The notes below the pieces were generated by a model. That model saw only the letters and a program-made list of their open reading frames with translations, was not told where the DNA came from and searched no databases. Of a stretch of DNA of 64,000 nucleotides, positions 38,973-55,597 are shown piece by piece (position 1 is the stretch's first letter; each line of letters begins with the position of its first letter). Origin of the DNA: a virus (Duplodnaviria > Caudoviricetes); the IMG/VR virus record IMGVR_UViG_3300021387_000075; one strand, 5' to 3'. Position numbers and translations under genes: made by a program.

Positions 38973-39473
38973 ATGCGTAACACTTACGAAGTTCGGGCTG
39001 AGAAGTTCATCCATCAGATTTTTAACTATATCTGGGAGTGCGAAAATGTTGATGACTATGAGTGGGCGGTAAATCACTTCAATTTCGAACACCACCGCAA
39101 CGTGAAGGTGGTCCACGGCCTGACTCGGGTGGCGCTGATTACCTCTGACTATGTGGTGAAGATTGATTGCGGTCGTGCCCACGATCTGGATACGTTCGGC
39201 GGTTGTGCCAACGAGTTCGATATCTACGCACAGGCCGAAGAGGATGGCTTCGCCTACCTCTTCGCTAAGCCCACAGAGGTTGTATATAATGGCCTGACCT
39301 TCTGCGTGATGCCCCGTATCCGTGGCATTGAGCGTGAACCTAATGACGCTGATTGGTATATGAGCGCCGAAGAGTGCGACTGGGTTTGTGAGCGGGTGTT
39401 TGATCTCCATAATGGAAATTATGGTTGGAAAGATGGCCATCCTGTACTGATCGACTATGCGGCGAATTGCTGA
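38973..39473 (+). CDS. minimal protein-kinase-like protein (166 aa)
   Basis: G..R.A..YVVKI, NE, DLHNGN catalytic loop, LIDY metal-binding motif. Confidence 0.75.
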   Translation: MRNTYEVRAEKFIHQIFNYIWECENVDDYEWAVNHFNFEHHRNVKVVHGLTRVALITSDYVVKIDCGRAHDLDTFGGCANEFDIYAQAEEDGFAYLFAKPTEVVYNGLTFCVMPRIRGIEREPNDADWYMSAEECDWVCERVFDLHNGNYGWKDGHPVLIDYAANC

Positions 39474-39574
39474 TGTTAGCTTCGGCTAACATTGGCCGGC
39501 GCGCCGTTGGATACTGTATACAATAGAAGCGCAAAGAAAAATCCCCACGATTGCCTGCGTGGGGTCAGTCTCCA

Positions 39575-39646
39575 TCTCGTTTATTGTTTGCCCAACGAGA
39601 AAGGGCATTCTGGAAAGGGGCTTTAAGGTTCAACCCCTTAGAACCT
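39575..39646 (-). ncRNA. two tandem H-type pseudoknots in 3' UTR
   Basis: AGGUUC/GAACCU with AAGGGGUU/AGCCCCUU; UGCCC/GGGCA with UCUCGUU/AACGAGA; terminator at 39537-39564. Confidence 0.65.
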
Positions 39647-39652
39647 CGGGCA

Positions 39653-39973
39653 TTAGCCCTTGAGGGTGTAGGCGTTGACCTTGCCCTCAATCTTCTCGAC
39701 CTCATTGGCCCAGTAGTTCCGCAGACCGTAGACGATCTTGCCCTTGGCGTAACCAGTCTCGTCCGCCAGTTCCTGAGCGGTCACGGGAGCGGTAGCGGAC
39801 TTCAGAGTCTCGATGACCGCATCGTGAATCTCCTCGTAGATTGCCCGATTCGCCTGCGCCTTAGTCTCACCCTTGGCCAGTTCGGCAACGATCTCGTCAT
39901 AAACATTCATCAGTTCGGCGATGTTGTGGTCGTTGATGTAGGAAGCGATGGTCTGCATAGTGGATTTCTTCAT
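39653..39973 (-). CDS. winged-helix protein, paralog 1
   Basis: PVTAQELADE..KGKIVYGL..W..EVEKIEGKVNAY. Confidence 0.8.
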   Translation of the reverse strand: MKKSTMQTIASYINDHNIAELMNVYDEIVAELAKGETKAQANRAIYEEIHDAVIETLKSATAPVTAQELADETGYAKGKIVYGLRNYWANEVEKIEGKVNAYTLKG

Positions 39974-40091
39974 TGTATAATTCCTTTCTGGTTTTTTAAG
40001 AGTTTTCCTTCTCTTCATCTTTCGTAGTTATTGTATCATAAGTTTGGAAGTTTGTCAAGAGGTTTCCGAAAATTTTCTCCCTTTTATTTTC

Positions 40092-40160
40092 GGTCAAGAG
40101 AATCATCGGGTCTTGCGTTTCCATGGAGATTTGTTTCCGCTCCCGTTCTCCCTCTCAACA
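40092..40160 (-). ncRNA. candidate promoter-driven hairpin ncRNA
   Basis: Own consensus promoter; GUUGAGAG/CUCUUGAC and CGGG/CCCG stems; no RBS-led ORF seen. Confidence 0.45.
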
Positions 40161-40744
40161 TCCTTATTATATCAGATTTCGGGGAGTTTGTCAAGGGTTT
40201 TTTCAACTTTTTTTCAAAGTTTTTTTCGCCCTCGGGAAGCTCGCTCCCTTCACCTGACATATATAATTATACTCGAAATTCGGAAAAAGTCAAGCACTTT
40301 TTTTGAAGAATACTGTATACAATCGCGGGCCGGCCAAAATGGACCGAAGTCCATTATAGCACGAATCGAACAATCGGACGATCTTTCTTAGAGTACCGAG
40401 CAAACACCATAAACCGCAACCAGAGGGCTTTCATTATGGGAAGATAGCGGACAGTCTGTTCTCCTTCAAGGTTTTTCAGATACACATTCATTTTGATGTT
40501 CCTCCTTCAAGAAAAAGCTGAAATCATTCATAATACATTCATAAGCGAAAAAGCAACTTTCGTCCGCATGGCACAGGGCGCATTTCCTGCACTTGCTTGA
40601 ATTGGCTACGACTTCCCACAAGTAGGCATTGAGTGTTTCCATAGTTTCCATCTCCTTTCAACATAGACATTGTATCATAGAAAAGGAAAACTGTCAACAG
40701 GAAAATTATTACAAAAGTATTAAATCGTGCCGGCGCGAAAGGGC

Positions 40745-40978
40745 TTACGCCCTTTCGTCATACAAAGTAAAATCATCAACCTCACGCACAAAGCCGCAAG
40801 CATTGTCAATGAAGGTAAAGCCATTATCTTTGGCTTTGAGAATCAAATCATTCATATCCTTGCGAAGGATCGCTTCTTCACGCTTACGGGTGCGGATAGC
40901 ACGAAGATTGTTAATAATGGTAGTCAGTTCCTCATCACTCATGTTGTCTGTGTCAATCATAATCTTGCCAATTCTCAT
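40745..40978 (-). CDS. hypothetical protein
   Basis: Single-gene cassette with promoter and terminator. Confidence 0.7.
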   Translation of the reverse strand: MRIGKIMIDTDNMSDEELTTIINNLRAIRTRKREEAILRKDMNDLILKAKDNGFTFIDNACGFVREVDDFTLYDERA

Positions 40979-41078
40979 TCGGGGTACCTTCCTTTCCTTT
41001 CGATACTTATATTATACTCACTTTTGCGCCAATGTCAATAGGAAAATTATTACAATTCTGTTAAATGCGCCGGCGGCC

Positions 41079-41744
41079 TCACTTGGAAGCCTTGGCACGC
41101 AAGGCTTCCAAGCATTTAGTAAAAATCTCTTTTTCAATTTCTACATCTTTAAGTCCTGTATGTGATTCAACAAAGTCATTGTTCTTACTAATATATCTCC
41201 AAAGCACTTCTGCGGTGAAGCGAGGGCGAGGGGTGGCGTGGTTTGTCATGTATCCGTTTTCCTTACAGAACGCAATATATTGTGGGTCATTACCAAATAC
41301 TTTCTTAGACAGTTTCAAGCTGTCAATAACTTTCATCCCATAGGGCAAGAAATACCGCTTTCGGGATTTAGTCTGGTAACGCATAGTGGCGTTAAGGGTT
41401 TGGATATCAAATCTGGAATTGTGTGCCACCACCGCCTGAACGTTGTACTTTTCGCACAGTTCTTTTACCGTATTATACATGCCCCACGTATCCACGATTT
41501 TGTGATTACCCATCCGCATGTCTTCAATGTATTTCGGGATTTTTTCGGCATAATATGCATCCTGCATCTGTTCGGGCATCCGAAAGAAAACATCCTCATT
41601 AATGACGCTGAAACGTGCTTTCTCCTCCCCATACTCATTGATTACCGCACCGCCGAGATCATAGACCTGACCGTTTTTTACATCCAGTTGTCCATCTACT
41701 ACGGGAGTGTTACAAGTTTCGCTATCAAATACCAAGAAGTTCAT
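41079..41744 (-). CDS. DEDDh 3'-5' exonuclease, paralog 1
   Basis: FDSET, AHNSRFD, HTGLKD. Confidence 0.88.
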   Translation of the reverse strand: MNFLVFDSETCNTPVVDGQLDVKNGQVYDLGGAVINEYGEEKARFSVINEDVFFRMPEQMQDAYYAEKIPKYIEDMRMGNHKIVDTWGMYNTVKELCEKYNVQAVVAHNSRFDIQTLNATMRYQTKSRKRYFLPYGMKVIDSLKLSKKVFGNDPQYIAFCKENGYMTNHATPRPRFTAEVLWRYISKNNDFVESHTGLKDVEIEKEIFTKCLEALRAKASK

Positions 41745-41880
41745 TGGAGTTACCTTTCTGGTTTGCGTTGTTTTCCTTCAACTTTCAAGTATGATTATAC
41801 CACGGAAAATAGAAATGTCAATAGGTATTTTGTTACAAAAGTATTAAATCTGCGGGCCGGCCGAGTTAGCGAGTGCTAAC

Positions 41881-42150
41881 TCATTTGAGAAAGCACTCAT
41901 ACCAAGCATAGTCGCCCCACGTGCCATTATTTACTACCTCGGTCTTATAGTCTTCCCACGCCTGCTCTTCGCCCTCTTCGGTGTTGGGGTAATCTCGATC
42001 TTCAACCCAAGAGTTGAAGTCCCGTTCTACAAACCAACCATAACGGCGCTCATCCAACCATTTGAAACATTCGTCCATAACTTTATCGAAATCAGTATAG
42101 GCAACCTGCGGTTCGCCTTCAAGAGTAATGACATAAATACGAGTAGCCAT
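41881..42150 (-). CDS. acidic aromatic-rich hypothetical protein
   Basis: RBS AGGAGG. Confidence 0.65.
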   Translation of the reverse strand: MATRIYVITLEGEPQVAYTDFDKVMDECFKWLDERRYGWFVERDFNSWVEDRDYPNTEEGEEQAWEDYKTEVVNNGTWGDYAWYECFLK

Positions 42151-42161
42151 ATTATCCCTCC

Positions 42162-42419
42162 TTAGCAATCATCGGTATACATTCCAAGATAAGGGTCAAA
42201 GCCCATATCATAGTCTTCATCATAGTTATCATCGGGAGTATCATCATAGGAAAGCCATTCGTCCCACGAGTCGAAGAACATTGCGAAGTCCTCGCAATCT
42301 TCCATTGGGTCATCAATGTGGCACACGTTGCACTGGTCGCAATAGGGGCAAGCGCCATAAGCATTGACAGTGCAGTAAGTGGTTTCACCGTTGTAAGTTC
42401 CCTGTTTTGCGTCTCTCAT
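42162..42419 (-). CDS. Cys-rich, very acidic small protein
   Basis: CPYCDQCNVC; Asp-rich tail. Confidence 0.65.
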   Translation of the reverse strand: MRDAKQGTYNGETTYCTVNAYGACPYCDQCNVCHIDDPMEDCEDFAMFFDSWDEWLSYDDTPDDNYDEDYDMGFDPYLGMYTDDC

Positions 42420-42669
42420 ACTAATACTCCTTTCAATCTGGCTCTGGCCTGTTTCCGTAAGCGCTTTTTCAGTTTCCGCATAGAGGGTGTGCTCTGGTTA
42501 ATCCACTTGCGGCATCCTTTATCTAAATCCCAAGCGGCGAGTTCATCAAACTTCTTGTATCTCGCTCTCTGCATCTCTCATCCCTCCTGACACTATTTAT
42601 TATACTCAGATTTGAAAAAAAGTCAATAGGTAAAATTGTTAAGTTTTTGTTACGCGCCGGCCGCCCGCC

Positions 42670-43359
42670 TCACTCCTCATCGAGTTCGGCAAGGCGTGCC
42701 ATTTTCTTATGCCTGCGGACGCACTCTGCGAAAATCTGCGCTTCAATTTGTACATCCTCTAACCCCGTGTGACTTTCTTCAAAGTCATTGTCGTTGGTCA
42801 GAAAGCGCCACAGAATTTCGGCAGTCTTACGCACCTGAGGGGTCTTGTGGTTGGTCATATATCCATTCTCTACACAGAACCGCCGATAGTTGGACTGCTT
42901 GCAAATGGTATCATTCGCCATAGTCATAGTATCCCAAATCGGGATACCATACGGGAAGAAAAATCTACGCTTGCTCTTGGTCTGATACCGAAGGGTTGAG
43001 TTTAAAACCCTCACATCAAATCTGGCATTGTGGGCAATGAAAGCCTTGATTTCATACTGTGCCACGAGTTCCCGCACAATCTTATACAGTTGCCAAGTAT
43101 TGACGATCTGGCGCTTGCCCATCCGAATATCGGTTAAGTACTGGGGAATTTTATCCGCAAAGTATGCTTCACGCATAGCTTCGGGCAGTCCGAAGAATAC
43201 ATCTTCATTCACAAAGGACATTTCCTTATACACAAAGCCCTCATTGTCTACGATTTGAAGGCCGAAGTCATAAACCTGACCGCAAGTCGTGTCTAACTGT
43301 CCGTCTACCTTCGGGGTGTTACAAGTCTCAGTATCAAATACCATATACAGATTCTTCAT
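42670..43359 (-). CDS. DEDDh 3'-5' exonuclease, paralog 2
   Basis: FDTET, AHNARFD, HTGLED; alignable end to end with 41079-41744. Confidence 0.88.
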   Translation of the reverse strand: MKNLYMVFDTETCNTPKVDGQLDTTCGQVYDFGLQIVDNEGFVYKEMSFVNEDVFFGLPEAMREAYFADKIPQYLTDIRMGKRQIVNTWQLYKIVRELVAQYEIKAFIAHNARFDVRVLNSTLRYQTKSKRRFFFPYGIPIWDTMTMANDTICKQSNYRRFCVENGYMTNHKTPQVRKTAEILWRFLTNDNDFEESHTGLEDVQIEAQIFAECVRRHKKMARLAELDEE

Positions 43360-43472
43360 TGCGTTTCGCTCCTTTCAACATAGCCATTATATCACTTTAT
43401 AGGATGCGTGTCAACCCCTTTTTGAAAAAAATTTTCGCGCCGGCCCGTTAGTCACGACTAACAAGAAAAGGG

Positions 43473-43880
43473 TCACGCCTGGGGCGTGACCTTAATCTTG
43501 CGGAGTTCCTTCAACCCCTTGTTTGCTTCCGCAAGGGCTTTCTTTTCCTCACGGGCTTTCTGGTCTTTGGCAATCTTGGCCTGCTTCTTCTCTTCGGCCT
43601 TGGCTTTCTTCTGCGCCTTTTCTTCAAGGTCAATCTGGTAATCTTCGGCGACAGAATAGCCATCATAAGGGATGTATCCACCGTTGCCATCACGAGCGCC
43701 ACGAGGGATAGACACCTTAATCACCGCCCACGTTTCATTGCCATCGGGATCAAGGCAAGGCACCGCAATCTCGTTGGCGCTCACCGCAAGCGCATCCGTG
43801 GCCTTTTCGGTTTCAATCGCCTTAGCAATCAGGGACAGGAAGTCGTTACGAATCGTGGTTTCCATCTGGGCTTTAGTCAT
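43473..43880 (-). CDS. hypothetical protein with Lys/Glu-rich C-terminus
   Basis: Own promoter; resembles 38133-38483. Confidence 0.75.
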   Translation of the reverse strand: MTKAQMETTIRNDFLSLIAKAIETEKATDALAVSANEIAVPCLDPDGNETWAVIKVSIPRGARDGNGGYIPYDGYSVAEDYQIDLEEKAQKKAKAEEKKQAKIAKDQKAREEKKALAEANKGLKELRKIKVTPQA

Positions 43881-44129
43881 CTAACATCGCTCCTTTCGTT
43901 CTTACAGGAAGATTGTATCACACTTTGTCGGGGTTGTCAAGGGGTTCTTGAAGATTTTTTTCGATCTTCTTTCCTCTTGATCTGGATATATTATACTATA
44001 AATTTTGAAGTTTGTCAAGAATTTTTTTAAAAGAATACTGTATACAATTTTGGCGGGCCGGCTCCAGTTAGCTATGGCTAACTAGCGCCGATAAGAAAAG
44101 CCCACCTTGCGGTGGGCGATAGGTCAGGA

Positions 44130-44462
44130 TTAGCGCCGAGTGTAGGAATTAACCTTGCCCTCGTGCTTGACCACATCCTTATCCCAGTAGTGGCCCAGAG
44201 CGTACTGAACCTTGGCCTTGGTGAAGCCATCAGGGAGAGACTCCTTCACAGCTTCATAGATCTCAGCGACCGTGGCGGGATACTCCGTATCCAGAGCGCC
44301 ATAGACTACATCCCAGGCGGTCTCATACAGCTCACGGTTGGCCTGAGCTTTCTCAGCTCCTTTGCTCAGCTCAGCTTTCAGCTCGCTCCGCACCGCTTCG
44401 GCTTCGGGAGTCTCGATGGTGGCAATCAGGGACAGGATGGTGTTCATAGTGGTCTTCTTCAT
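44130..44462 (-). CDS. winged-helix protein, paralog 2
   Basis: PATVAEIYEAV..TKAKVQYAL..W..VVKHEGKVNSY. Confidence 0.8.
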   Translation of the reverse strand: MKKTTMNTILSLIATIETPEAEAVRSELKAELSKGAEKAQANRELYETAWDVVYGALDTEYPATVAEIYEAVKESLPDGFTKAKVQYALGHYWDKDVVKHEGKVNSYTRR

Positions 44463-44712
44463 AGTGGTAACCCTTTCTGGTTTGTGGGGTTTTCCTTCCC
44501 CTATTTCGTATTTATTGTACCACGGTTTCGGGAGTTTGTCAAGAGGTTTTTTGAACTTTTTTCAAAGTTTTTTTTGACCTCTGGGATTCTCTCCCGTTCC
44601 CCTTGGAACAATTATATTATAGCAGGAATTAGGAAAAAGTCAATAGTTTTTTTGAAAAAAAGATTGTTAAGTTTTTCACAAGCGGCGGGCCGGCACGAAA
44701 GTAGACCGAAGT

Positions 44713-44973
44713 CTACTTGTACAGAAGGGAAAGGAAGTAGAGATTGAGAACAACGCTTGATAAATGCATCATAACATCGTTGATGTGTCGATGCTGGGAG
44801 AGGTCTTTACATACGCCGAACACCGCCACAGCAAGTCCAAACCACGAAACTTGAAGGCCGAAAAGCATAATCAGAGCCACGTTTAAGATTGTAATTCCGC
44901 AACGAACATCATTCCATTCGAAGCGATAGGCGGTTTCAATTCCGAACCAATTCTTAATCGTCTGCATTTTCAT
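44713..44973 (-). CDS. small membrane protein ending in TAG
   Basis: Hydrophobic segments; terminal TAG lies inside the terminator hairpin. Confidence 0.65.
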   Translation of the reverse strand: MKMQTIKNWFGIETAYRFEWNDVRCGITILNVALIMLFGLQVSWFGLAVAVFGVCKDLSQHRHINDVMMHLSSVVLNLYFLSLLYK

Positions 44974-45184
44974 TTCTCCTTGCCCATTCAAGATATTGCT
45001 TGCTCATCTTTTTAATATTATCAGGGGTAAAACCATTGTTAATATTATACCAAGTGGAAACATAAAAGGGGATACCATGACGAGTTGCACAATTCGCAAC
45101 CGCATTGACAAGGCGAGTAATTATCAGACGAAACCAGACATATTTCCACAATCCGTGGAAATCATTACCATAGAACATTCTCAA
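44954..45184 (-). CDS. hypothetical protein
   Basis: First gene behind promoter at ~45217-45244. Confidence 0.55.
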   Translation of the reverse strand: MRMFYGNDFHGLWKYVWFRLIITRLVNAVANCATRHGIPFYVSTWYNINNGFTPDNIKKMSKQYLEWARRNENADD

Positions 45185-45348
45185 TCCATCCTTTCCGTTC
45201 CTCTTGGAACAATATCATTATACCACGTTATATAAGAATGTCAATAGGAAAATTGTTACAATTCCATTAACAAATTTGTGCCGGCCCGAGTTAGCGGCGG
45301 CTAACTGGCGAGAAAAGAAAAGCCCTCCTCAAAGGGAGGGCTTTTCTA

Positions 45349-45675
45349 TTAAGCCTTGCGAGAGTAGGTATTAACCTTGCCCTCGATCTTGTCGATGTCG
45401 TCCTTCCACAGGCGGGTGATGGCATACTGGAGGTTGCCCTTCGTGAAGCCCTCGGGCAGGGTGTCCTGCACCGCCTCGTAGATTTCGGTGATGGTCGCAG
45501 GGGCATCCATCACGGCGAGGACAATATCCTTCGCCTGAGCGTACAGAGCGTCCTTCGCCTGCTTGGCTTCGGAGTTGCGGTTGATTTCCTTCTGGAACTC
45601 AGCGAGGATTTCGGCATTGTCGAAGCCCTTGGCGGTCAGGAAAGCGTAAACAGTGGCGTAAGTGGTGTTCTTCAT
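45349..45675 (-). CDS. winged-helix protein, paralog 3
   Basis: PATITEIYEAV..TKGNLQYAI..W..IDKIEGKVNTY. Confidence 0.8.
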   Translation of the reverse strand: MKNTTYATVYAFLTAKGFDNAEILAEFQKEINRNSEAKQAKDALYAQAKDIVLAVMDAPATITEIYEAVQDTLPEGFTKGNLQYAITRLWKDDIDKIEGKVNTYSRKA

Positions 45676-45780
45676 GGTGATAATTCCTTTCTGGTTTGTG
45701 AGGTTTTCCTTCCTCTGTTTTCATAAGTATTATATCATGGGGTTTCGGGTTTGTCAAGGGTTTTTTTAAATTTCTTTTTT

Positions 45781-45872
45781 GTTCTTCGGGAGCCTGTTTC
45801 GTGTGCGTCCACACAGGGTTGTGCGCCCATCCCATGAAGGCTTGCCTTGGTTTCTCCTGTCTCCCTCGGAAC
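45781..45872 (-). ncRNA. candidate multibranch ncRNA
   Basis: Own promoter; GGGAG/CUCCC closing stem with several internal hairpins. Confidence 0.45.
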
Positions 45873-45968
45873 AATTATAGTATATCACAATTTTAGGAAA
45901 AGTCAAGCACTTTTTGAAAAAAAGATTGACAACTTTTTAACAATCCGCGGGCCGGCTTGGGAGTTAGC

Positions 45969-46406
45969 TTACGCTAACTCCTTCAAGATTTCAATCATTT
46001 TGTCAGGGGTGAAAGCCTGTCCGTGCCATGCCTTGCGGTTCGGGGCTTCATCATCGAAGAGGATATCATCATCGGAATGTTTGAACTGGTATTTTGGAAC
46101 ACCATATCCGACAATCTCAATCTCATCGAACCGAACGCTTGCGAGGTGACGCCGAAGCCAATTCAGTTTGGCGGTGGCAATCTCATCACAGTAAGCTTCG
46201 GGCGCATTTTTGGCAGTCCAACTAATGATTCCCAACTTACAACCTGCCTTCTGTGCCTTATTCATCAGGCGAGCAAGATAGCTCATATTCCACATGACTT
46301 TGGCGTTTTCGTAAGGGGTAGTCTCACGAGCGAGAAGCATATCAAGCCAACCATCAACCCCATACAGGTCAGCAATCGTTCCATCCATATCCCACCAAAT
46401 CGTCAT
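45969..46406 (-). CDS. HAD-family 5'(3')-deoxyribonucleotidase-like, paralog 1
   Basis: DMDGTIADLY, ISWT, K, LFDD. Confidence 0.85.
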   Translation of the reverse strand: MTIWWDMDGTIADLYGVDGWLDMLLARETTPYENAKVMWNMSYLARLMNKAQKAGCKLGIISWTAKNAPEAYCDEIATAKLNWLRRHLASVRFDEIEIVGYGVPKYQFKHSDDDILFDDEAPNRKAWHGQAFTPDKMIEILKELA

Positions 46407-46514
46407 TCGATCAACTCCTTCCGTTTCTGTACCTGTATTATAGCATAGAGTTTCGGGAAAGTCAATAGTTTGATGTTACATTTTTCTGACATCGCTGGCC
46501 GGCGCGAAACCGAA

Positions 46515-47114
46515 TTAGGTTAATTCGGCCTGCTCTAGAATGGCTAAACTGTTTGGAAGTTTTTCTGCTAAATCCTGAACATCAATTTTTACCTTAAAAC
46601 GATCTTTGGAAATAAAATTTTTTAAGGTATATTTCTTTACTAAGTAGTTACGAGCAACACTTTCGAGAGAAGTAGCATCCACTTTGTGCGTGTCAATCGT
46701 GTAAAGAATTTTTCCATGATCAACTGACGGGTATTTATTAAGATGCTGTTTCATTCTCCGTTCTACATCAACCGAAGTTCCAATTTTGTCAAATACGTGC
46801 TTATTATCTTTATCATAAAAGCGCATGATATAAAAATAATCATGGTAATGTAAAATGTTTTCAATAGCTTCAACTACCTGTTGAGTAATCCGCTTAATAA
46901 ATTTAGCTGTATATCTTAATGCTTCTTTTACATATTCCCAAGTCTCACGAACAATAGGGAATTTGTCATAGATATCAAGCATGTGTTCAAACCGTGTTTT
47001 TCTGGTTTCAGTAGTTTCGGCTTCCATCATTTTGCCATACTGATAATTCATTTCTTCTTTTGCCTGTTCATCAGAAGAAATCCTATTCACGTTGAACCGT
47101 CCCCGCATTGCCAT
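46515..47114 (-). CDS. GIY-YIG/T5orf172-like protein
   Basis: FYIMRF..KIGTSVDVERRMKQH..LE. Confidence 0.7.
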   Translation of the reverse strand: MAMRGRFNVNRISSDEQAKEEMNYQYGKMMEAETTETRKTRFEHMLDIYDKFPIVRETWEYVKEALRYTAKFIKRITQQVVEAIENILHYHDYFYIMRFYDKDNKHVFDKIGTSVDVERRMKQHLNKYPSVDHGKILYTIDTHKVDATSLESVARNYLVKKYTLKNFISKDRFKVKIDVQDLAEKLPNSLAILEQAELT

Positions 47115-47303
47115 TGTCCTGTCCCTCTCTGGTTTGTAAGGTATCCTTCCTTTTCTTTCGTTCCCCTTGGAACAATATAATAATACCACTATATTATAAT
47201 CTTGTCAACCCCTTTTTTAGGATTTTTTCAAAAAAAATGCGCCGGCCCGTTAGCCGTGGGTAACAGAATGAAATAAAAAGACCGCCCGAAGGCGGTCAAG
47301 GGC

Positions 47304-47633
47304 TTACGCCCTCCGATAGGTGTTAGGCTTGCCCTCGATCTTCACGATCTCATCCTGCCACAGATGGGTCAGGGCATACTGAACCTTGCCCTTGGTGATG
47401 CCATCGGGAACGTTCTCCTCGATGGACTCCCACAGTTCGCCACAGGTGACAGGGGTATCAGACAGGGCTTCCACGATCAGAGCGTGAATGGACTCATACG
47501 CTTCGGCGTTCTTGTCCTTCTGCGCCTGTCCCTTAGACAGTTCGGCGGTCAGTTCCGCAATCTCGTTAGCGTACTTTTCGGGGTCGATAGCGGTCAGAGC
47601 GGTCAGGATGGTGTTCATGGTAGCTTTCTTCAT
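47304..47633 (-). CDS. winged-helix protein, paralog 4
   Basis: PVTCGELWESI..TKGKVQYAL..W..IVKIEGKPNTY. Confidence 0.8.
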   Translation of the reverse strand: MKKATMNTILTALTAIDPEKYANEIAELTAELSKGQAQKDKNAEAYESIHALIVEALSDTPVTCGELWESIEENVPDGITKGKVQYALTHLWQDEIVKIEGKPNTYRRA

Positions 47634-47744
47634 GGTAAGTTTCCTTTCTGGTTTGGGAGGTGTCCTTCCTCTTTGTGTATTCATTATATCACTTTCGTGA
47701 TCTAATGTCAAGGGTTTCGGGAAAATTTTTTTTGATATTACGTT

Positions 47745-47835
47745 CGGGAAAGTCGCCACTTGCGCCTGTGGGATTGGGGGATCAGTCCCGACCTTCCCGT
47801 TCTTTCAGAGGGTGATCCGCTCTCCCTCTGACATT
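47745..47835 (-). ncRNA. candidate ncRNA (hairpin + 3-way junction)
   Basis: Own promoter; UCAGAGGG/CCCUCUGA and CGGGAAGGUCG/CGACUUUCCCG. Confidence 0.5.
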
Positions 47836-47899
47836 GTCATTGTATCACACCCCGTGGGGTTTGTCAAGGGGATTTTCAAATTTCTTTGAAAATTTGTTT

Positions 47900-47958
47900 C
47901 GTTACCGTGTGTCCGCAAACAGGAGTGCCTTTCGGCTTATCTCCTGTCCCCTTGGAAC
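47900..47958 (-). ncRNA. candidate ncRNA
   Basis: Own promoter; ACAGGAG/CUCCUGU with GCC-GAAA-GGC; 5' end resembles the 45872 unit. Confidence 0.45.
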
Positions 47959-48055
47959 GATATAAGTATATCACAGATTTCATATTGAGTCAAGCATTTT
48001 AGGAAAAAAAGATTGATAACTTTTTCACAAAGTCGGGCCGGCGCGCAGAAGGAAA

Positions 48056-48283
48056 TTAGATTTCCTTTGCGTAATACACCAGACTCATACCAGTTTCGGG
48101 AGAACAGTTGTAATAATGAATCGCATTACACATCTGCTCGAAGGAAACGGAATTGTCTTCGGGCTTTTCAATCCATCCTGCCAAAGAGCTTGCGGTGTTA
48201 ATACGGTTCGGGAGAACCATAATTTCTTTTCCTTCGTTATAGAGCTTTCGGGCCATACCTTTCGTGATTTTAATCATGATCAT
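48056..48283 (-). CDS. hypothetical protein
   Basis: RBS AAAGGAG within cassette. Confidence 0.65.
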   Translation of the reverse strand: MIMIKITKGMARKLYNEGKEIMVLPNRINTASSLAGWIEKPEDNSVSFEQMCNAIHYYNCSPETGMSLVYYAKEI

Positions 48284-48481
48284 TCTCTCCTTTCAATTCG
48301 TTGAGAAACTTTTCCAAATTCCACTCTTCATTCTTCATTCGCTGAAGGATTTCCTGATTCTCCAGAAGTAGTTCATCAATCGTCATCGCGCACCCTCACT
48401 TTCTGAATGTATTATATAATAGAATTATAGAAAAGTCAAGTAGAAAATTATTACAAAATTGTTAATTTGCGCCGGCGCGCC

Positions 48482-49134
48482 TTAGCGGTCGCGCTCCGCA
48501 TAAGCGTCTAAGAAGGTTTGAACGTATGCTGATGCCTTATAACCGCTTTCCAATAACTCACAATAATGGTCGTCTTCACGCACAATGTTTTCTAACTCTT
48601 CACAAATGTCATCGAGCAAAGATCGCACCGCTTCGATCTTATCAAGTGCGCGGTTATCAATACGTATTGACTTTGAGACTTCTACCAGTGACATTTTTAT
48701 TTCTCCTTTCACATTACATCATACATTTTAAGAATACGCTCAACCTTCGGAACATCCTGCGCCCGACATGTTACCACAAAGCGGATAGTATCGGATTGCC
48801 GATTGATCTTGAAGTCTCCAACGCTACATCCGACCCGCTCGATAACCACGTTCATAATGTGGTGCCCTACCCGATTGCGAGGAACATAATAAATGCGTGT
48901 AACCATCATTCATCACTCCTTTTAGTGTCATTAATCCCATTCTCTTCCAATGTTTGAAGCGAGAAACCTGTTTTCATATTTGACATCAACAGAGAAGTTA
49001 TATCCACCTTCAGTAATAGCCTGCTGATGGCGCTTCTCTAAATCTGCTTTACTATCACAATAGTAAGCATGGCTTTTTTGATATTCATCATCAAATGGGT
49101 CATCAGTAACCCAATTTAGTTTATAGCGAGTCAT
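48482..49134 (-). other. three small co-transcribed genes (48482-48694, 48709-48909, 48931-49134)
   Basis: Each has an RBS; one cassette between GCCGGC at 48471 and 49377. Confidence 0.65.
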
Positions 49135-49386
49135 TCATCAAATTCCTTTCCCTTGTGTTTCGGTTTCTTAAACCGCTTGTCGGGGATAATGCGAGTGACG
49201 CAATACCCCTGTGGAAACTCTTTACGCTCGGACTGGAAGACTTCCACCCAAGTTTTCGGTTGCTGTTTCTTCGTGCGCTTACTCATCGTCTCACATCTCC
49301 TTTCGACATTGTTATTATAACAAATTGTGTGTTACAAGTCAATAGCCAAATTGTTACAATTCTGTTAAATTGGCGGGCCGGCACGG

Positions 49387-49623
49387 TTACTCCCGTGCCA
49401 TTACTTCCTCATAGTCAAGGCCTAACCATTCACACACAATTTCAAAGTCAAAGCGCATGAAGTCGTTAATCTCCTCAACGGACCACGGTTCATCGCCATT
49501 CCTGACTTCTTCCATCATGCTTTCAAGAACATCCAATTCCTCAGAGGTAAGCTTAGCGGCATTAGTTGCGGCCGCGCTCCAAAAGTCAAAGTCCCTCAGA
49601 CTCTTTTCAATCGTCATTGTCAT
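49387..49623 (-). CDS. acidic small protein
   Basis: FDFWSAA..LTSEELD..INDFMRF; RBS. Confidence 0.7.
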   Translation of the reverse strand: MTMTIEKSLRDFDFWSAAATNAAKLTSEELDVLESMMEEVRNGDEPWSVEEINDFMRFDFEIVCEWLGLDYEEVMARE

Positions 49624-49889
49624 GATACATACTTCCTTTCATTAATTCTCATCAAAGGCTATACCGAAACCGCCGAGAACAAGGCCAGGGACACAGCCCC
49701 AAAGCCATTGATTCCCCATAAAGAAACCGACCAGAAAGAAGAAACCAGTGAGGAACAACCCGAAACCGCAAGCAACCTTTTCCATAAGCTCCCCTCCTTT
49801 GATATATAAAGTATATCATAATTTTAAAAAAATGTCAAGCATAAAATTTGGGCCGGCCCGTGTTAGCCGAGACTAACAGAGGATCCGAA

Positions 49890-50123
49890 AAAAAGCCACC
49901 CATTCGGGTGGCGATGGGGATGGTCTTCACGAGATGAATCCCTGCCTCTTTCAGATCCCCGCAGGTGCTGCCTCGACATTTGAACCCTTTCGGATCCCAG
50001 TGCTCGCCACACTGTATACCGCACCATCTCGCTCTTTCGGCGTGCGGTTGGTTCATCGGGAATGGTCTTACTGACTCTCGTGGGTCTCACCCGCTTTGGG
50101 CTTTGCCTTCCCTCACCCTGTGC
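49890..50123 (-). ncRNA. candidate ~235-nt highly structured ncRNA
   Basis: TTGACA(50151-56)-N17-TATAAT(50128-33); several GAAA-capped stems; terminator at 49888-49912. Confidence 0.6.
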
Positions 50124-50177
50124 CTGTATTATATCACAGGCGGTCGGTCGTGTCAAGTACTTTTTGAAACTTTTTTT

Positions 50178-50290
50178 GAGGCTGAGCGCTCTCCGAAATA
50201 GCGGGCGCTCATTTGATGGTCTTATGCGGTCTACCTGTGACCTTGGCAGTCTCACTCTGGTTTCTCACAGCGAGCCTTCCGCCAACCTCG
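50178..50290 (-). ncRNA. candidate multibranch ncRNA (~110 nt)
   Basis: Consensus promoter 50296-50324; GAGGUUG/CAGCCUC closing stem and three arms. Confidence 0.55.
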
Positions 50291-50344
50291 GGGCTATTAT
50301 ATCACGGTCGGTCGTGCTTGTCAAGGGGTTTCCGAAACTTTTTT

Positions 50345-50455
50345 TCGGAGAGTGCGGTGGGGTTGAGGACATTCCGAGTCTCGCCATACTGTCTCGGAAC
50401 TTAGTTTTTTACATGGTCCCTCGGTCCACCGCTGGAAGGGTTTCCCCTCCTGACA
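50345..50455 (-). ncRNA. candidate long-hairpin ncRNA
   Basis: Own promoter; nested GCGGUGG/CCACCGC and UUCCGAG/CUCGGAA stems. Confidence 0.5.
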
Positions 50456-50568
50456 TGATTATAATACCACAAGAGGGGAGAAAAGTCAATTACGAAAGTC
50501 TAAACTAATTGTCATACTTTCGTAACATTTTCGGGCCGGCTCGGCCCACCCGATGGGTGGGCTTTTGC

Positions 50569-50853
50569 TTATTCTTCGGGCATGAATCCCGCATAATGGG
50601 CGACAACAATTTCATCATCATAGATCGATTCGGTTTCCATATCGTCCATCAGCAGAGCGCCAATGTCTCCAATGAACCAGTCTTCGATTCCTTCCATTAC
50701 CCACAGGTCTTGGTTACAATCTTCGAAGATAACCAGATCGTTTTCATAGTCCAGATCAGTAACTACGCCAACAGCGGGATACACATCAGCGCAGGCGCTT
50801 ACAGCAGTCAGCAGGGCAATCAGGGTCAGGGTCAGTGCAATCAGCTTCTTCAT
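50569..50853 (-). CDS. secreted acidic small protein, paralog 1
   Basis: Signal peptide; similar to 53665-53949. Confidence 0.75.
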   Translation of the reverse strand: MKKLIALTLTLIALLTAVSACADVYPAVGVVTDLDYENDLVIFEDCNQDLWVMEGIEDWFIGDIGALLMDDMETESIYDDEIVVAHYAGFMPEE

Positions 50854-50951
50854 TTCGGTTTACCTTCCTTTCTTTTCCCTCTTGGGATGGCTTCATTATA
50901 TCACAGCTTCGCTCAGCTGTCAAGCCCTTTTTTCGGGGCTGGCTGGGCTTT

Positions 50952-51395
50952 TTAGCCCAGCCGAGCCAGCGTCCGCTCGTTGGTGAGCTCAGCCCCATCG
51001 AGCTTGACCTGAATCTCAACCCCGTCCACCCGGATGTCGCCAGCTACCCAGAAGGGGACGCTGTCCTTGACCCAGGTCTCGGAGGTCCAGCGCTCGGTCA
51101 GCTCCCGCTCGAAGTTTTCGCCCTTGTTGTGGTCGGGGTCAGCGGTCAGCAGGTTCTCGGATCCCAGCAGCTCCGCCGTGGCGCTCAGCTCAGCACGGTC
51201 CTTGGCGGTCAGCTTGATCCGGATCTTGGCGAACCCGCCCCGCTTGGAGCTGGCCCGGTCCAGCTTGAAGAAACGGCTCAGCTCCTCAAAGCTCATACGC
51301 TGGGCGTAAAGGTTGCCGTTGGCTACAAAGCCCAGAGCGTAAGTGTGGGCGCCCGCCCGCTCGTTGTACTTGGTCATCATTTCGGTCATCGTCAT
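50952..51395 (-). CDS. PD-(D/E)xK/Mrr-like fold protein, paralog 1
   Basis: GENFE..GDI..IQVK. Confidence 0.6.
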   Translation of the reverse strand: MTMTEMMTKYNERAGAHTYALGFVANGNLYAQRMSFEELSRFFKLDRASSKRGGFAKIRIKLTAKDRAELSATAELLGSENLLTADPDHNKGENFERELTERWTSETWVKDSVPFWVAGDIRVDGVEIQVKLDGAELTNERTLARLG

Positions 51396-51689
51396 CGTGG
51401 TCAACCCCTTTCCTTTACTGTACCTGTATTTTACACCATAAAGCCGGAGTTGTCAACCCCTTTTTGAAAAAAAGTTATTACAATTTTCTTAACTAATTGC
51501 CCGCCGGCTGTAACAATTTGTTTAGACTTTTGTAACAATTTTCCTCTTGACAGCGCGCCTTCGGCGTGCTAAAATGTTAGTGGTGGAAGAGGGGCCTTTT
51601 ATATATACTTTAGTATGCTAAAGCGGTGCCCGGGCCGGTCCAGTTACTTTCGTGCTTTAGCGTGCTAAAGTGTGGCCGGGCCGGCAAGT

Positions 51690-51770
51690 TTGACTTTCTT
51701 TGACTTTCAGAAAAGATAGGCAGGTTCGCCGTGGGTCCCAGTCTTCTTTTGCCTCCCCTGATCTGATTAT
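51690..51770 (-). ncRNA. candidate ncRNA, paralog of 54590-54645
   Basis: Own promoter; shared GCAAAAGAAG-N4-GGACCNACGGC core. Confidence 0.45.
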
Positions 51771-51889
51771 ATTATAACAGACCCGGGTCGGGATGTCAAC
51801 CCCTTTTTGAAAAATTTTTTTTACTATTTTTAGGGCCGGTCGGATCCCTGCGCTGATCCCGTCTGCCGGATCGATCCGAGGGTAAAAAA

Positions 51890-51965
51890 AATAAGGCTGT
51901 TTTTTCTGGTGGGCCACCTCTTGCCTTTCGGCGCCCTTTAGGAGTTGCCTTATCTCTCCCACTGA
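51890..51965 (-). ncRNA. candidate ncRNA
   Basis: Own promoter; AUAAGGC/GCCUUAU closing stem, GCC-GAAA-GGC, U-tract. Confidence 0.45.
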
Positions 51966-52100
51966 TGATATGATATCATAAGTGGGTGAAAATGTCAACC
52001 CTTTTTTGAAAATTTTTTTCAAAAAAAAGTTTCGCCGGAGGGGTTGACAATTCCATATAAATGTGGTATATTATAGTCACAGAAAGGGAGGTGCTACCGA

Positions 52101-52529
52101 ATGAGGATTTGGTTCGACATGGACGGAACAATCGCTGATCTGTATGCGGTGAATGGATGGCTCGATGATATTATCGCCGAAAATACCCGCCCGTATGAGT
52201 GCGCTAAGGTGCTCCACAATATGGCTCATCTGGCGCGGTTGCTGAATAAAGCCCAGAAAAACGGTCACGAAATTGGGATCATCTCATGGACGGCGAAAAA
52301 CGGCAAGCCCGAATACAATCGGGCGGTTGAGATGGCAAAAAAGGCTTGGCTGAGAAAGCATCTTCCTTCTGTTCATTGGAATGAGATTAAGGTTGTCGAA
52401 TATGGTACCAATAAGTACAACGCCTGCGGTGGTGGTATCCTGTTTGACGATGAGGAGGAAAACCGTGAAACCTGGGGCAAGGGCGCTCATGAACCGAAAG
52501 AAATTATAGAAATTTTGAAAAAGATTTGA
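52101..52529 (+). CDS. HAD-family nucleotidase-like, paralog 2
   Basis: DMDGTIADLY..LFDD; similar to 45969-46406. Confidence 0.85.
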   Translation: MRIWFDMDGTIADLYAVNGWLDDIIAENTRPYECAKVLHNMAHLARLLNKAQKNGHEIGIISWTAKNGKPEYNRAVEMAKKAWLRKHLPSVHWNEIKVVEYGTNKYNACGGGILFDDEEENRETWGKGAHEPKEIIEILKKI

Positions 52530-52594
52530 AAAAGGGGTTGACACCCGGCGCAATCTGTGATACACTTATATCATCAAAGAGGGAGGTTAAGGCA

Positions 52595-52723
52595 ATGACT
52601 TACAAGGTGCGAGAGCTGGTAAATGGGCGGTTCGGGGTTTATGAGTGCTCTGAGTGGCGGGAGACTCTGGTAAAGACCTTCAAAACCCGTCAGAGTGCGG
52701 AAAAGTGGATCAGCAAGCGCTGA
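52595..52723 (+). CDS. 42-aa protein, paralog 1
   Basis: Promoter and RBS; MTYKVRELVNGRFGVY..KTFKTRQSAEKW. Confidence 0.7.
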   Translation: MTYKVRELVNGRFGVYECSEWRETLVKTFKTRQSAEKWISKR

Positions 52724-53520
52724 TCCACCCGCCGAAAACTTTTTTCAAAAAAGTTTGAAAAAAGGGTTGACAAATCCGGCAAAATGATATATACTTATAT
52801 CATCAAGAGGGGGAAACCCCAGAAAGGCGGTACCAAATGAAGTACGTTGAGAACACCATGGAAGCCCTGATTGAGAAGGCCCTGCGGGAGATGGAAGAGA
52901 AGGGCGAAAAGCTCCCCGAGATCCGGTACGACGAAGGGCGCTAAGCCCTTCGGCCGGATCGGGCCGGTTATATGATACAAAAATGCTGTTTTTTTGTTAG
53001 CCATGGCTAACAAGTACTCGCACTCTCCCCTGTCCCTCCCCTCGGTGCAATTGTATTATAGCATACCGGCCCGAGATTGTCAACACTTTTTTCAAAAAAA
53101 ATTAAGCCGTGATCCTTAGTGGATCACGGCCACCACGATTCCCGTGGTATCGGTTTCAAGGTGGATCACCTCATCCCAGAGGTCGCGCGCCTCGATCCAT
53201 CTAATGGCCTCGCGGATATCGGTTCCGATTACTTTATCGCTCTCATGCATTGCTTCTCGCTCCCTTCTTTTGATAGTTATATTATAGCATAAAGTTGAAA
53301 AAAGTCAAGACTTTTTTATAATGGAAAAAGCCCTTTTTCTTTTGATCCGGGACTTTAGCAAACTAAAGTATCGGACCGGGCCGGCTACATTAACGTTAAT
53401 GTAACTGGGATCCCGGGCATTAACGTTAATGTAAAAAAGTAAAATAAAATTGAAAAAAGGTGTTGACAGACCGGACGAAAGGTGATATACTTATATCATC
53501 AAAGAGAGGAGGACACCGAG

Positions 53521-53610
53521 ATGATGGACTGGTACATGAACCCCGAGATTCACGAAGAAGACTACGAAGAGCTGATGGCTCTTCTGGCCGAGGAGGAAGA
53601 GGAGGATTGA
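53521..53610 (+). CDS. 29-aa acidic peptide
   Basis: Promoter, RBS AGGAGG; MMDWYMNPEIHEEDYEELMALLAEEEEED. Confidence 0.55.
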   Translation: MMDWYMNPEIHEEDYEELMALLAEEEEED

Positions 53611-53664
53611 CTCCTCTTCTTCCCCCTGAGAAGGACTTGACAGATAACGAAGGAGGACAAGACA

Positions 53665-53949
53665 ATGAAGAAGGCAATGATGATTCTGGTGGCGCTGATC
53701 CTGACGATGGTGGCTTTAACCGCAAGCGCTGAGATTTATCCCAAGACCGCTAAGGTGATCGAGGTAAATTATGATGAAGATCTGGTTACTATTGAGACCT
53801 GTACAGGAATAACCTACACTTTCGAAGGATGCGAAGATTGGGTTGAAGGTGATGGCGTTTCCCTGATAATGGAAGACAACGGAACAGAGTCAATTCTTGA
53901 CGATTGTATCCTAATGGCTGAATATACTGGATGGACTCTTGAACACTAA
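53665..53949 (+). CDS. secreted acidic small protein, paralog 2
   Basis: Signal peptide; YP..V..YDEDLV..G.EDW..GD..LIMEDN.TESI.DD. Confidence 0.75.
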   Translation: MKKAMMILVALILTMVALTASAEIYPKTAKVIEVNYDEDLVTIETCTGITYTFEGCEDWVEGDGVSLIMEDNGTESILDDCILMAEYTGWTLEH

Positions 53950-54109
53950 GGGCCAAAGGCCCTTTTCTTTATGTGTATGTGTTACCTATGACTAACAAGG
54001 CCGGCACATTAACGTTAATGTAAAAAGCTCACTTTTTTTCATTTACCCTATTGACTTTTTTCGCTTTATCGTATATACTTATATCATCAAAGGACGGAGG
54101 TACGAGAGA

Positions 54110-54238
54110 ATGACTTACAGAATTTATGAACTGGCTAACGGACGGTTTGGAGTATATCAGATGACCGAGTCCCTGATGGTGCTGGTGAAAACCTTCAAGA
54201 CTCGGAAGAGCGCCGAAGGATGGGTTAGCAAGCGCTGA
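54110..54238 (+). CDS. 42-aa protein, paralog 2
   Basis: MTYRIYELANGRFGVY..KTFKTRKSAEGWVSKR. Confidence 0.7.
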   Translation: MTYRIYELANGRFGVYQMTESLMVLVKTFKTRKSAEGWVSKR

Positions 54239-54589
54239 CCCATCCCGAAAAAAAGTTGTTGACAAACCCGGCAAGATGTGATACTATATAGTCACAGGGA
54301 GGAACCCTGAAACGAAAGGAGACCGAAAAATGTACGAGATCATCAACCTGACCACCAAGGCCACCGAGGGAATCTTTGCCACCTATGAAAGCGCTGTGAA
54401 TTGGGTCAAGGCCCACGGCGACGCCAAGAACTTCCGGATCCTTCCGTGGTGATCCGGAAGCCGATCCGGCGCACAGTACTAACTAAGCCGGCTGGACCGG
54501 CCCTAACATTAACATTAACGTTAATGTAAAAAGTTGATTTTTTTTAAAAAAAGGGCTTGCATTTTTCCCTAACTTGTGATAATATAAAG

Positions 54590-54645
54590 ACAGATGGGAG
54601 GAAGCAAAAGAAGGTCCGGACCAACGGCAGAAGACCCCTTTTTTA
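54590..54645 (+). ncRNA. candidate ncRNA, paralog of 51690-51770
   Basis: Promoter-like region upstream, U-tract end, shared core. Confidence 0.4.
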
Positions 54646-54776
54646 AGATGTCGGATCCGGTACCAAAATTCACATCAAAAAAATTCAAAAAAAGTGTTGA
54701 CAAACCGGAATATATGAGTATAATAGTGTATGTAAGGAAGAGGTACGGAAAGTACCTGATGAAGGAGGAAGAAACA

Positions 54777-54995
54777 ATGGAAATTATCGAAATGCTGGAC
54801 AACTACGGATTCATCACTGTTGACGGTCTGGAAATCACCGTGGCGGACTTTGTCGGATTCGATGATGACTGGTCTGAAATCTACGATGAAGAGTATGAAG
54901 CGCTTGATGATGATGATCTGGATACCCTGTATATGATTCTGGAAGATCTGGAAGCGCTGGGCTACACCATCCACTGGACTCATGAGGATATCTAA
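54777..54995 (+). CDS. extremely acidic 72-aa protein with no Lys/Arg
   Basis: Consensus promoter, RBS AGGAGG, composition. Confidence 0.7.
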   Translation: MEIIEMLDNYGFITVDGLEITVADFVGFDDDWSEIYDEEYEALDDDDLDTLYMILEDLEALGYTIHWTHEDI

Positions 54996-55147
54996 TCCTC
55001 ATGAGCCCCCGGTACTTTCACTTACTAAAGTGTCCCGATCCGGAGAACAGCGGTAAAATTTTTCAAAGAAATTTCAAAAAAAGGGTTGACAAACCGGCAC
55101 AAAGGCGTTATAATCTATCTGTAAGATGAATCAAGGAGGTAACCACC

Positions 55148-55597
55148 ATGACCGCTGAAATGATGAAAATCCTGTACAACGCCCTCTCCGCTTCTCACCT
55201 CTACATCCTCGGGTTCATGGTTCAGAATGTTCTGTATTACACCATGATGGACTTCGAAAAGCTCGCCGGGTTCATGAAGATGGACAGAATGAGCACCGCA
55301 AAAGGTGGATGGGCAAAGCTCCGGATAAAGCTCACCACCGCACAGAAGGCCGAACTGCTCAAGATCGCCACAAGGTGCGGAACGGTGGAAGATCTCACCG
55401 CAATGGAGAAGTACAACAAAGGTGAGAACTTCGAAAGGATTATCACCGAACTTCTCACCGGGGAAAGATGGGTAAAGGATAGCGTCCCCTTCAATGTGGC
55501 CGGAGACATTGTCCTAAACGGTGAGAACGTACAGATAAAGTTTGACGGCGCAGAGATAACGAATGAACGGTTACTAACAAAGCTCACCGCAAGGTGA
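55148..55597 (+). CDS. PD-(D/E)xK/Mrr-like fold protein, paralog 2
   Basis: GENFE..GDI..VQIK; similar to 50952-51395. Confidence 0.6.
   Translation: MTAEMMKILYNALSASHLYILGFMVQNVLYYTMMDFEKLAGFMKMDRMSTAKGGWAKLRIKLTTAQKAELLKIATRCGTVEDLTAMEKYNKGENFERIITELLTGERWVKDSVPFNVAGDIVLNGENVQIKFDGAEITNERLLTKLTAR

Follow-up and report, generated by a model that had tools for sequence, protein, structure and literature searches.

Coliphage T7 carries tandem major early promoters, A1, A2 and A3, with a non-coding leader. The transfer RNA (tRNA) region of phage T4 encodes stable RNAs, and differential RNA sequencing reportedly mapped early non-coding RNAs in phage phiKZ. Decoy RNAs of phages include RNA anti-CRISPRs, which are solitary repeat units (CRISPR, short palindromic repeats that are clustered and regularly interspaced), and pseudo-ToxI antitoxin repeats; integron arrays include cassettes without an open reading frame (ORF). 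Here we describe a stretch of 64,000 nucleotides (nt) from a virus of the Caudoviricetes (IMG/VR record IMGVR_UViG_3300021387_000075), hereafter the window. The window comes from a large TAG-recoded phage, and ~36.5-56.4 kilobases (kb) is its early region. This region contains ~45 near-perfect promoters of the sigma-70/sigmaA consensus, of which ~13 drive short non-coding segments, hereafter units. The units are very probably transcribed non-coding modules. We give a probability of roughly 55% to the fuller reading, in which they are early RNA modules, made in quantity and acting through their folds.

The layout resembles T7 A1-A3 in that strong promoters for the host polymerase, ~100-150 nt apart and with no ORF between them, stand ahead of an early gene and would fire at the start of infection. 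Unlike T7, which has one such stack, the locus has at least six; the intervals are RNA families with covarying helices, exchanged between phages as modules, and some units are closed by a terminator of their own, no gene following. As with the small RNAs of T4 and phiKZ, these would be non-coding RNAs expressed from a phage genome in infection, but no sequence or Rfam relationship connects them, and ~13 units within 15 kb in a uniform promoter-plus-RNA format are unusual. Phage decoy RNAs are also small, and act by mimicry; for the units the mode of action is only a possible likeness, and they have no repeat structure and no match to a CRISPR direct-repeat (CRISPR-DR) model. The Rfam families ROOL, GOLLD and HEARO are complex-fold RNAs of phages and mobile DNA that sometimes lie beside tRNAs, as the RNA that we call family A does in one relative. 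Family A is much smaller (~210 nt), and no Rfam model matched at E <= 10 on a 581-nt query covering it (49880-50460). Like ORF-less integron cassettes, the units are non-coding cargo in the same modular format as protein cassettes, whereas each module here has its own promoter and no integrase or attC sites were seen.

A consensus scan of 37000-56500 gave 103 sigma-70-like sites, compared with 30.3 +/- 4.7 in shuffled sequence. Sixteen early sites are perfect 12/12 matches to TTGACA-16/17-TATAAT, mostly with an extended -10 TG, and high-scoring promoters are nearly confined to 36-56 kb. They point along the minus strand up to ~53.3 kb and along the plus strand from ~52 kb, and each early promoter has UP-element-type A-tract repeats ahead of it (repeat families D1, D6 and D15). 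Most are followed within 20-30 nt by a Shine-Dalgarno (SD) sequence and a start codon. We defined a unit as the interval from a predicted transcription start to the -35 box of the next promoter. The original prediction, made on the letters of the window, had listed ten ORF-less units and four very short ones, with three in tandem at 49890-50490; all are present as such intervals (Table 1), and the three-unit stack was confirmed. Also as predicted, the units have no ORF of at least 8 codons with an SD core 4-16 nt upstream; the sole SD-led exception is an 8-residue TTG frame in u44609, which extends beyond the end of the unit. Three units are too short to be judged as RNAs, and u43983 is too short to be called an RNA gene.

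Self-complementary structure, which had been claimed for all the units, was found for them as a set. Thirteen units have a mean folding z score of -1.55, and 40 controls cut from coding sequence in that region and on that strand have a mean of -0.16 (Mann-Whitney p = 0.004). Six or seven units reach -2.5 or below, and family A, family D and u40159 fall between -1 and -2. The claim did not hold for u40259, u45872 and both copies of family C, which have z >= 0. Most units begin with a purine-rich, SD-like start (e.g. GAGGGAG or AGGAG) that the predicted fold pairs with a downstream pyrimidine run; in u47958 the AGGAG is buried in a hairpin. In family A, G-U pairs occur on the transcribed strand, as fits an RNA.

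Family A has a perfect promoter, an RNA of ~210 nt and a GC stem of 7 base pairs (bp) at 49895-49912 followed by a T7 run to 49888, and thus combines the three features of a free-standing small RNA gene, namely its own promoter, no ORF and an intrinsic terminator. IMG/VR contains 62 loci whose sigma factor is related to that of the window, the contigs being up to 188 kb long. A blastn search of these loci found family A copies 82-85% identical in phages whose sigma factor is only ~51-53% identical, and a scan of IMG/VR with a 23-nt invariant block returned 19 distinct copies on 16 contigs. All 19 copies start 7 nt past a TGnTAnnnT extended -10 box. They have in common a 5' domain of ~107 nt, and the 3' half exists in at least three subtypes. 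Further, more diverged copies lie on contigs binned into Clostridia/Bacillota metagenome-assembled genomes, one bin having six; Clostridia as hosts are indicated by such bin labels only. In a search with a degenerate form of the block, in which two variable positions were written as N, two of the seven genome-contig matches (L112 and L113) were false, the pattern there encoding the Walker A motif GPTGVGKT of Clp-type ATPases. The long frame of family A is broken in one copy by a 1-nt insertion directly after its ATG, and the variable hairpin (13-24 nt) differs in length by numbers that are not multiples of three; family A is therefore non-coding.

Checks of the Rfam collection and of covariation in homologs, both suggested with the original prediction, were carried out: the units belong to no Rfam 15 family, and families A and B covary above shuffled alignments (0/500 shuffles in each case). 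The family A alignment has 95.4% of its cells paired and a covariation score of 0.222, compared with 0.083 in shuffles and at most 0.085 when the partners were slid, and compensatory changes occur in three helices. The central arm of the model has a hairpin with a GAGA tetraloop (GNRA type) and an invariant internal loop that may be loop-E-like. Long unpaired blocks are invariant across phages with ~50% protein identity. A covariance model of the 5' domain found one copy in the window and 20 matches in ~1.2 megabases (Mb) of related loci. With a single copy in the window, u50289 and u50454 were ruled out as hidden family A members.

A riboswitch or cis-acting leader would place an aptamer and then an expression platform before one functional class of gene, whereas the downstream context of family A varies. 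Its 3' side is formed by a terminator in the window and in L001 and L046, by another promoter in L010, L110 and L111, and by an SD and ATG placed directly 3' of the RNA in L128. On the upstream side, the closest relative (L001) has a different ORF-less unit preceding family A. In L073 (positions 971-1288) the 5' domain lies immediately upstream of two tRNA genes, which replace the usual 3' half. Rfam searches of six related loci with other family A subtypes returned only tRNAs. The best candidate for a protein neighbour is a 150-residue protein encoded near 6 of the 23 copies of family A, on either side and at no fixed distance. In the window it corresponds to a 150-codon ORF at 50952-51404 (minus strand) with no family match, whose homologs lie within 1.5 kb of those 6 copies; the promoter-to-promoter segment around it (~50.9-51.4 kb) has an unusually high G+C of 0.62.

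Family B (u47832) has six members, all with the order hairpin 1, purine-rich linker, long hairpin 2 and GAACG. In the six-sequence alignment 11 of 18 pairs are changed on both sides (9 of 10 in hairpin 2), and the covariation score is 0.656 as compared with 0.26 in shuffles. Family C is an RNA of ~55 nt with one copy on each strand of the window; relatives have 18 distinct copies, up to three in a locus. A consensus promoter stands ahead of every copy and a U-run at every end, and the block GGACCNACGGCG is invariant in the 18-sequence alignment. Only one 3-bp helix of family C covaries, switching between two clades, and the thermodynamic signal is nil; a second, terminator-like helix was considered and received no support from the alignment. 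Family C looks more like a sequence-constrained small RNA than like a structured one. Family D has homologs in L037 (97% over 71 nt, with a sigma factor 50% identical) and L078, with two compensatory pairs and one extended hairpin. Families C and D each combine a promoter with a U-run; their putative terminator stem is either weak or not kept in relatives.

Homologs were also found for u40159 (L102, L080, L099, L106 and L086) and for u45872 (L001 and L083 at ~93%, and the more distant L067); RNAalifold gave almost no shared fold for these two families. An all-against-all unit comparison placed u40259 in cluster 12 with L086 and L087, and u44609 in cluster 1. Searches of related loci with nhmmer and blastn found no homologs of u50289, u50454, u47958, u44609, u40259 or u43983. 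For u50289, u50454 and u47958, nothing therefore shows conservation.

The original prediction held that the RNAs are handled as cassette cargo in the way of the proteins, and comparison with relatives supports this. Across all loci, 182 distinct ORF-less promoter-to-promoter units fall into 121 clusters, and the same RNA family is found in different neighbourhoods in different phages, so the units behave as shuffled cargo. Identical cargo stands before distantly related copies of the winged-helix gene described below (u40159 and its L102 homolog), which indicates that RNA and gene are not transmitted as a pair. Placing non-coding RNA modules behind early promoters is a clade-wide habit, wider than one window.

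We then placed assembled contigs of four public metatranscriptome libraries, from at least three studies, on 39.5-56.5 kb. Contigs cover four winged-helix genes (39678-40168, 44214-44633, 45551-45857 and 47299-47856); beyond the proximal promoter they reach into the upstream unit, ending no more than ~25 nt from where the distal transcript is predicted to start. Family A is present in RNA-library contigs, and one contig lies at 50357-50555, over u50454. In many early-region bins, among them most of 50.3-56.5 kb, cover is sparse or nil, which is not evidence of silence. The contigs are consistent with early transcription and read-through without proving either.

Table 1. Units without an ORF and the winged-helix genes of the early region, in positions of the window (z, folding z score).
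Feature	Position	Strand	Promoter	Properties
Family A RNA	49888-50121	minus	50156-50128	~210-nt multi-helix RNA and intrinsic terminator
u50289	50157-50289	minus	50324-50296	z -2.5; no terminator, predicted to read into family A
u50454	50325-50454	minus	50489-50461	z -2.7 to -3.0; top of three-unit stack
Family C copy 1	51711-51764	minus	51799-51771	~54 nt, U-run end; z > 0
Family C copy 2	54590-54645	plus	TTGCAT 54557-54562, TGaTAATAT 54577-54585	U-run end
Family D RNA	51884-51963	minus	51998-51970	~80 nt; T8 end in window copy
Family B unit u47832	47712-47832	minus	47867-47839	two hairpins, z -3.4; stacked before E4
u47958	47868-47958	minus	47993-47965	z -3.5; top of E4 stack
u45872	45758-45872	minus	45906-45879	z 0.1-0.2; stacked before E3
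u44609	44543-44609	minus	44643-44616	z -2.5; stacked before E2
u40159	40059-40159	minus	40194-40166	stacked before E1; weak structure evidence
u40259	40195-40259	minus	40293-40266	top of E1 stack; no fold signal
u43983	43941-43983	minus	44018-43990	43 nt, up to next promoter (43940-43912); before gene 43473-43880
Unit at ~53020	52950-53048	minus	53083-53055	antisense into plus-strand cassette 52767-52950
Winged-helix gene E1	39653-39973	minus		paralog, 106-110 codons
Winged-helix gene E2	44130-44462	minus		paralog, 106-110 codons
Winged-helix gene E3	45349-45675	minus		paralog, 106-110 codons
Winged-helix gene E4	47304-47633	minus		paralog, 106-110 codons

Seven units are stacked, one or two deep, ahead of the four winged-helix paralogs, with no terminator between; in u44609 ~40 nt are followed by the A-tract of the next promoter. 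Paralogy of E1-E4 was established from the repeats D5, D9, D12, D14 and D18 and by alignment. An AlphaFold2 model of the protein (predicted local distance difference test score 93) has a long helix followed by a winged helix. A Foldseek search of the PDB with this model gave nothing at E <= 0.001 and only generic winged-helix domains, and comparison with Pfam and PHROGs gave nothing significant. We took a tandem early promoter stack to be at least two strong promoters in the same direction, less than 200 nt apart, with no ORF or terminator between them, ahead of an early gene. Such stacks stand before E1-E4 and in 24 of 28 related winged-helix loci; the definition is inapplicable to families C and D. 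Each of the 24 loci has a proximal promoter with a conserved hairpin in the 5' untranslated region (5'UTR) and one or two upstream promoters, each preceding 60-170 nt without an ORF, and the cargo differs each time. In two further loci of the 28 the distal promoter is visibly weaker. The recurrence of this layout suggests that the units are probably leaders as well as RNAs. No hairpin with a U-run was found after the stacked units in the window, so transcripts from the distal promoters should run into the gene. The stacked units, and the two that feed into family A, are most likely transcribed as nested leaders and not as separate genes. The idea that such promoters carry RNA instead of a gene therefore stands for families A, C and D only, and not for the seven units that feed gene promoters with no terminator between.

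The 5'UTR module occurs at 38489-38526, 41750-41787, 44469-44506, 45683-45720, 47124-47158 and 47640-47677. Shared by the winged-helix paralogs with several early genes unrelated to them, it consists of a covarying stem around the loop AAGGAAAA, then ACCAGAAAGG, then the start codon, and may serve as a regulator site or to enhance translation.

The alternative that survives best, and which we hold to be somewhat unlikely, is that the units are only spacers between tandem strong promoters that raise gene expression, the hairpins acting purely in cis, whether to mask the SD-like starts, to make the 5' end more stable or to insulate the promoters. The position of 7 of the 13 units before winged-helix paralogs without a terminator, which is the rule in relatives, is what promoter stacking would give, as is the joining of unit and gene in the RNA-library contigs. 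The cargo is extremely diverse and mostly singleton, and family B keeps its pairing while the sequence varies freely, as a purely structural cis role predicts. Promoter stacking does not account for families A, C and D, which here precede no gene and finish with a terminator or U-run; the invariant unpaired blocks of family A exceed the needs of a spacer, and the same families are found at unrelated positions.

That the RNAs are decoys of a specific known kind, as the original prediction proposed, is very improbable; it had named mimics of CRISPR repeats, of type III antitoxin repeats or of tRNAs, and CsrA-like protein sponges. RNAs that are early, abundant, variable and shuffled would have the pattern expected of counter-defence cargo, and GGA motifs are plentiful in many units. 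A T-arm-like hairpin (GGTTCRAnTCC) is found in some relatives' units; L041, L050, L052 (cluster 10) and L067 (11484-11570) have ORF-less units with a perfect hairpin of this type, reading GGTTCAAnTCC or GGTTCGAATCC, which hints that some cargo RNAs of relatives are tRNA-derived. The window itself has no tRNA or transfer-messenger RNA according to ARAGORN, and the T-loop pattern occurs at chance level (7 times, compared with 5.4 expected) with no occurrence inside a unit, which speaks against tRNA mimics. ToxI-like antitoxins would be recognised by tandem direct repeats of ~34-36 nt upstream of a toxin gene. Tandem Repeats Finder reported no tandem repeats of ~30-40 nt inside the units, only A/T-rich promoter upstream elements and GTAACA iterons, so that this form of mimicry is also unsupported. 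CRISPR repeats could be compared only in the form of the CRISPR-DR models of Rfam, and neither these nor the 6S and CsrB/RsmZ models matched inside the units, even at E <= 10 on 49880-50460 and 51690-51970.

Rfam 15 as a whole gave no match at gathering score or above in the window, nothing meaningful at E <= 5 over 36-57 kb, and no match at E <= 10 on 51690-51970. A weak PrrB/RsmZ match outside the units, at 36150-36276 (plus strand; 27 bits, E = 0.009, gathering score 44), is probably due to chance. A literature search found no published descriptions of these RNAs.

The remaining explanations have little probability. Decayed cassettes, in which the gene was lost and the promoter kept, are highly improbable: the units do have the SD-like purine start of the protein cassettes, and three are orphans, but the compensatory changes and invariant loops of families A and B show selection on RNA, and the units have a high GC content and better folding than coding sequence. 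No unit resembled any cassette protein gene in an all-against-all comparison, and no relative was seen with an intact, recognisably similar gene at the place of a unit. Slightly weaker still is a role at the DNA level as operator, iteron or recombination sites or as attC-like single-stranded hairpins; palindromes and GCCGGC-rich joints do lie between cassettes that are shuffled between phages, but the palindromes sit upstream of promoters and are distinct from the units, the conserved segments begin precisely at predicted start sites, and the G-U pairs would be A-C on the opposite strand. Translation of the units as micro-ORFs or leaderless peptides is the least credible, since a 42-codon frame at ATG 40124 in u40159 (ATG kept in 4 of 5 homologs) and an ATG 4 nt from the start of the family C copy at 54590 both lack a correctly spaced SD and cross the next promoter, the latter ATG is absent from other family C copies, and most units have no start codon opening a frame.

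In the reading that we favour, a module would consist of an A-tract UP element, a near-consensus promoter for host sigma-70/sigmaA and 30-230 nt of non-coding RNA, and such modules would be interspersed with the ordinary small-protein cassettes of the early region. Family A with its terminator, the two copies of family C and family D would be four free-standing small RNA genes. Lacking a terminator, u50454 and u50289 would read into family A, giving nested transcripts of ~565, 400 and 230 nt with a common 3' end. Host RNA polymerase starting at the stacked promoters would make long-leader messenger RNAs of the winged-helix genes, and the stacks would also multiply the promoter dose for these genes. 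Pairing of the SD-like 5' start with the downstream pyrimidine run would exclude ribosomes and close the 5' end of the RNA, and conserved, unpaired, family-specific blocks would be left free for a partner. The RNAs would be abundant at the very start of infection and would act via their folds, the likeliest action being the binding of a host or phage protein. The odds seem to us even that families A to D, at the least, have a role of their own in addition to that of a cis leader; that this role is decoy or sponge-like is a tentative suggestion and rather unlikely. We regard as speculative and quite unlikely the broader picture in which the clade maintains, alongside the small proteins, a second cargo of early RNAs, a library that changes fast and is shuffled horizontally, each RNA capturing or disabling a different host or rival factor; together they would form an RNA-based arsenal for take-over and counter-defence. 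Family A would there be a new class of complex-fold RNA (a ribonucleoprotein scaffold or ribozyme), pluggable as gene, leader or head of a tRNA operon.

Several observations weigh against acting, folded early RNAs as the common explanation. Family C, u40259 and u45872 give no folding signal; u50289, u50454 and u47958 fold stably yet have no homolog in ~1.3 Mb of related DNA, and the covariation in families B and C comes from a small number of sequences or clades. Of the cargo clusters most are singletons, a pattern that fits weak constraint as well as it fits an arms race. No constant neighbouring protein was found for the 23 family A copies, and a search of the window for antisense targets of the family A and C invariant blocks found only their own genes. 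The RNA-library contigs carry no 5' or 3' ends, strand or level and may reflect DNA carry-over, and a family A contig continues upstream past the promoter of a relative.

The genetic setting of the units is itself divided. No ORF of the window is longer than 443 codons under the standard code. If TAG is decoded as an amino acid, a frame of 3120 codons appears at 12636-21998 (minus strand), and the flanks then tile into long genes. The late and structural genes (1-34000, minus strand; 56469-64000, plus strand) are open only when TAG is read in this way, and the early region has short ORFs that are intact under the standard code and a higher G+C than the rest of the window. Judged from these frames, this appears to be one genome with two codes, divided by expression timing. 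Genes for the large terminase (58583-60454) and portal (60451-61989) were found on the right flank. The sigma-factor-like protein is encoded at 56469-57761 (plus strand) with 7 in-frame TAG codons, and its C-terminal residues ~366-423 match zinc-finger families of the HNH/endonuclease VII type. Early-region ORFs have weak matches to exonuclease, nucleotidase and GIY-YIG/T5orf172 families; two paralogous early genes (41079-41744 and 42670-43359, minus strand) match PHROG 20187 and have a weak match to exonuclease subunits of DNA polymerase. No match to 40-55 kb was found by megablast among 50,697 GenBank phages.

GTAACA iterons of 11/22 nt form arrays at both edges of the early region (55825-56100 and 37785-37851); the arrays include a 69-nt unit repeated 2.2 times, and may be a replication origin or regulator binding sites. 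Perfect palindromes of the types CATTAACGTTAATG and CTTTAGCnnGCTAAAG occur at 53355-53440, 54000-54030, 54495-54530, 51560-51660 and 56015-56040. They adjoin the GCCGGC-rich joints between cassettes, immediately upstream of promoters. Relatives have different palindromes at equivalent places, e.g. AAGTTGTACGTACAA. The palindromes resemble operator or recombination sites.

The early region of a phage is read almost wholly as a list of small proteins; in this large clade of uncultured phages about a quarter of the early promoters drive RNA. In at least two of the RNA families the helices covary as functional folds should, and Rfam includes none of the families. Family A is attractive for structural work, being compact, with many invariant unpaired bases, a GNRA loop and a possibly loop-E-like internal loop. 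Should the action of the RNAs be confined to cis, structured leaders paired with a winged-helix family would be an unusual architecture of phage gene expression, and the units would supply well-defined parts, namely strong promoters and leaders, for use in Gram-positive hosts. Should the RNAs act in trans, they would constitute a new pool of effectors of host take-over or anti-defence that is invisible to gene callers.

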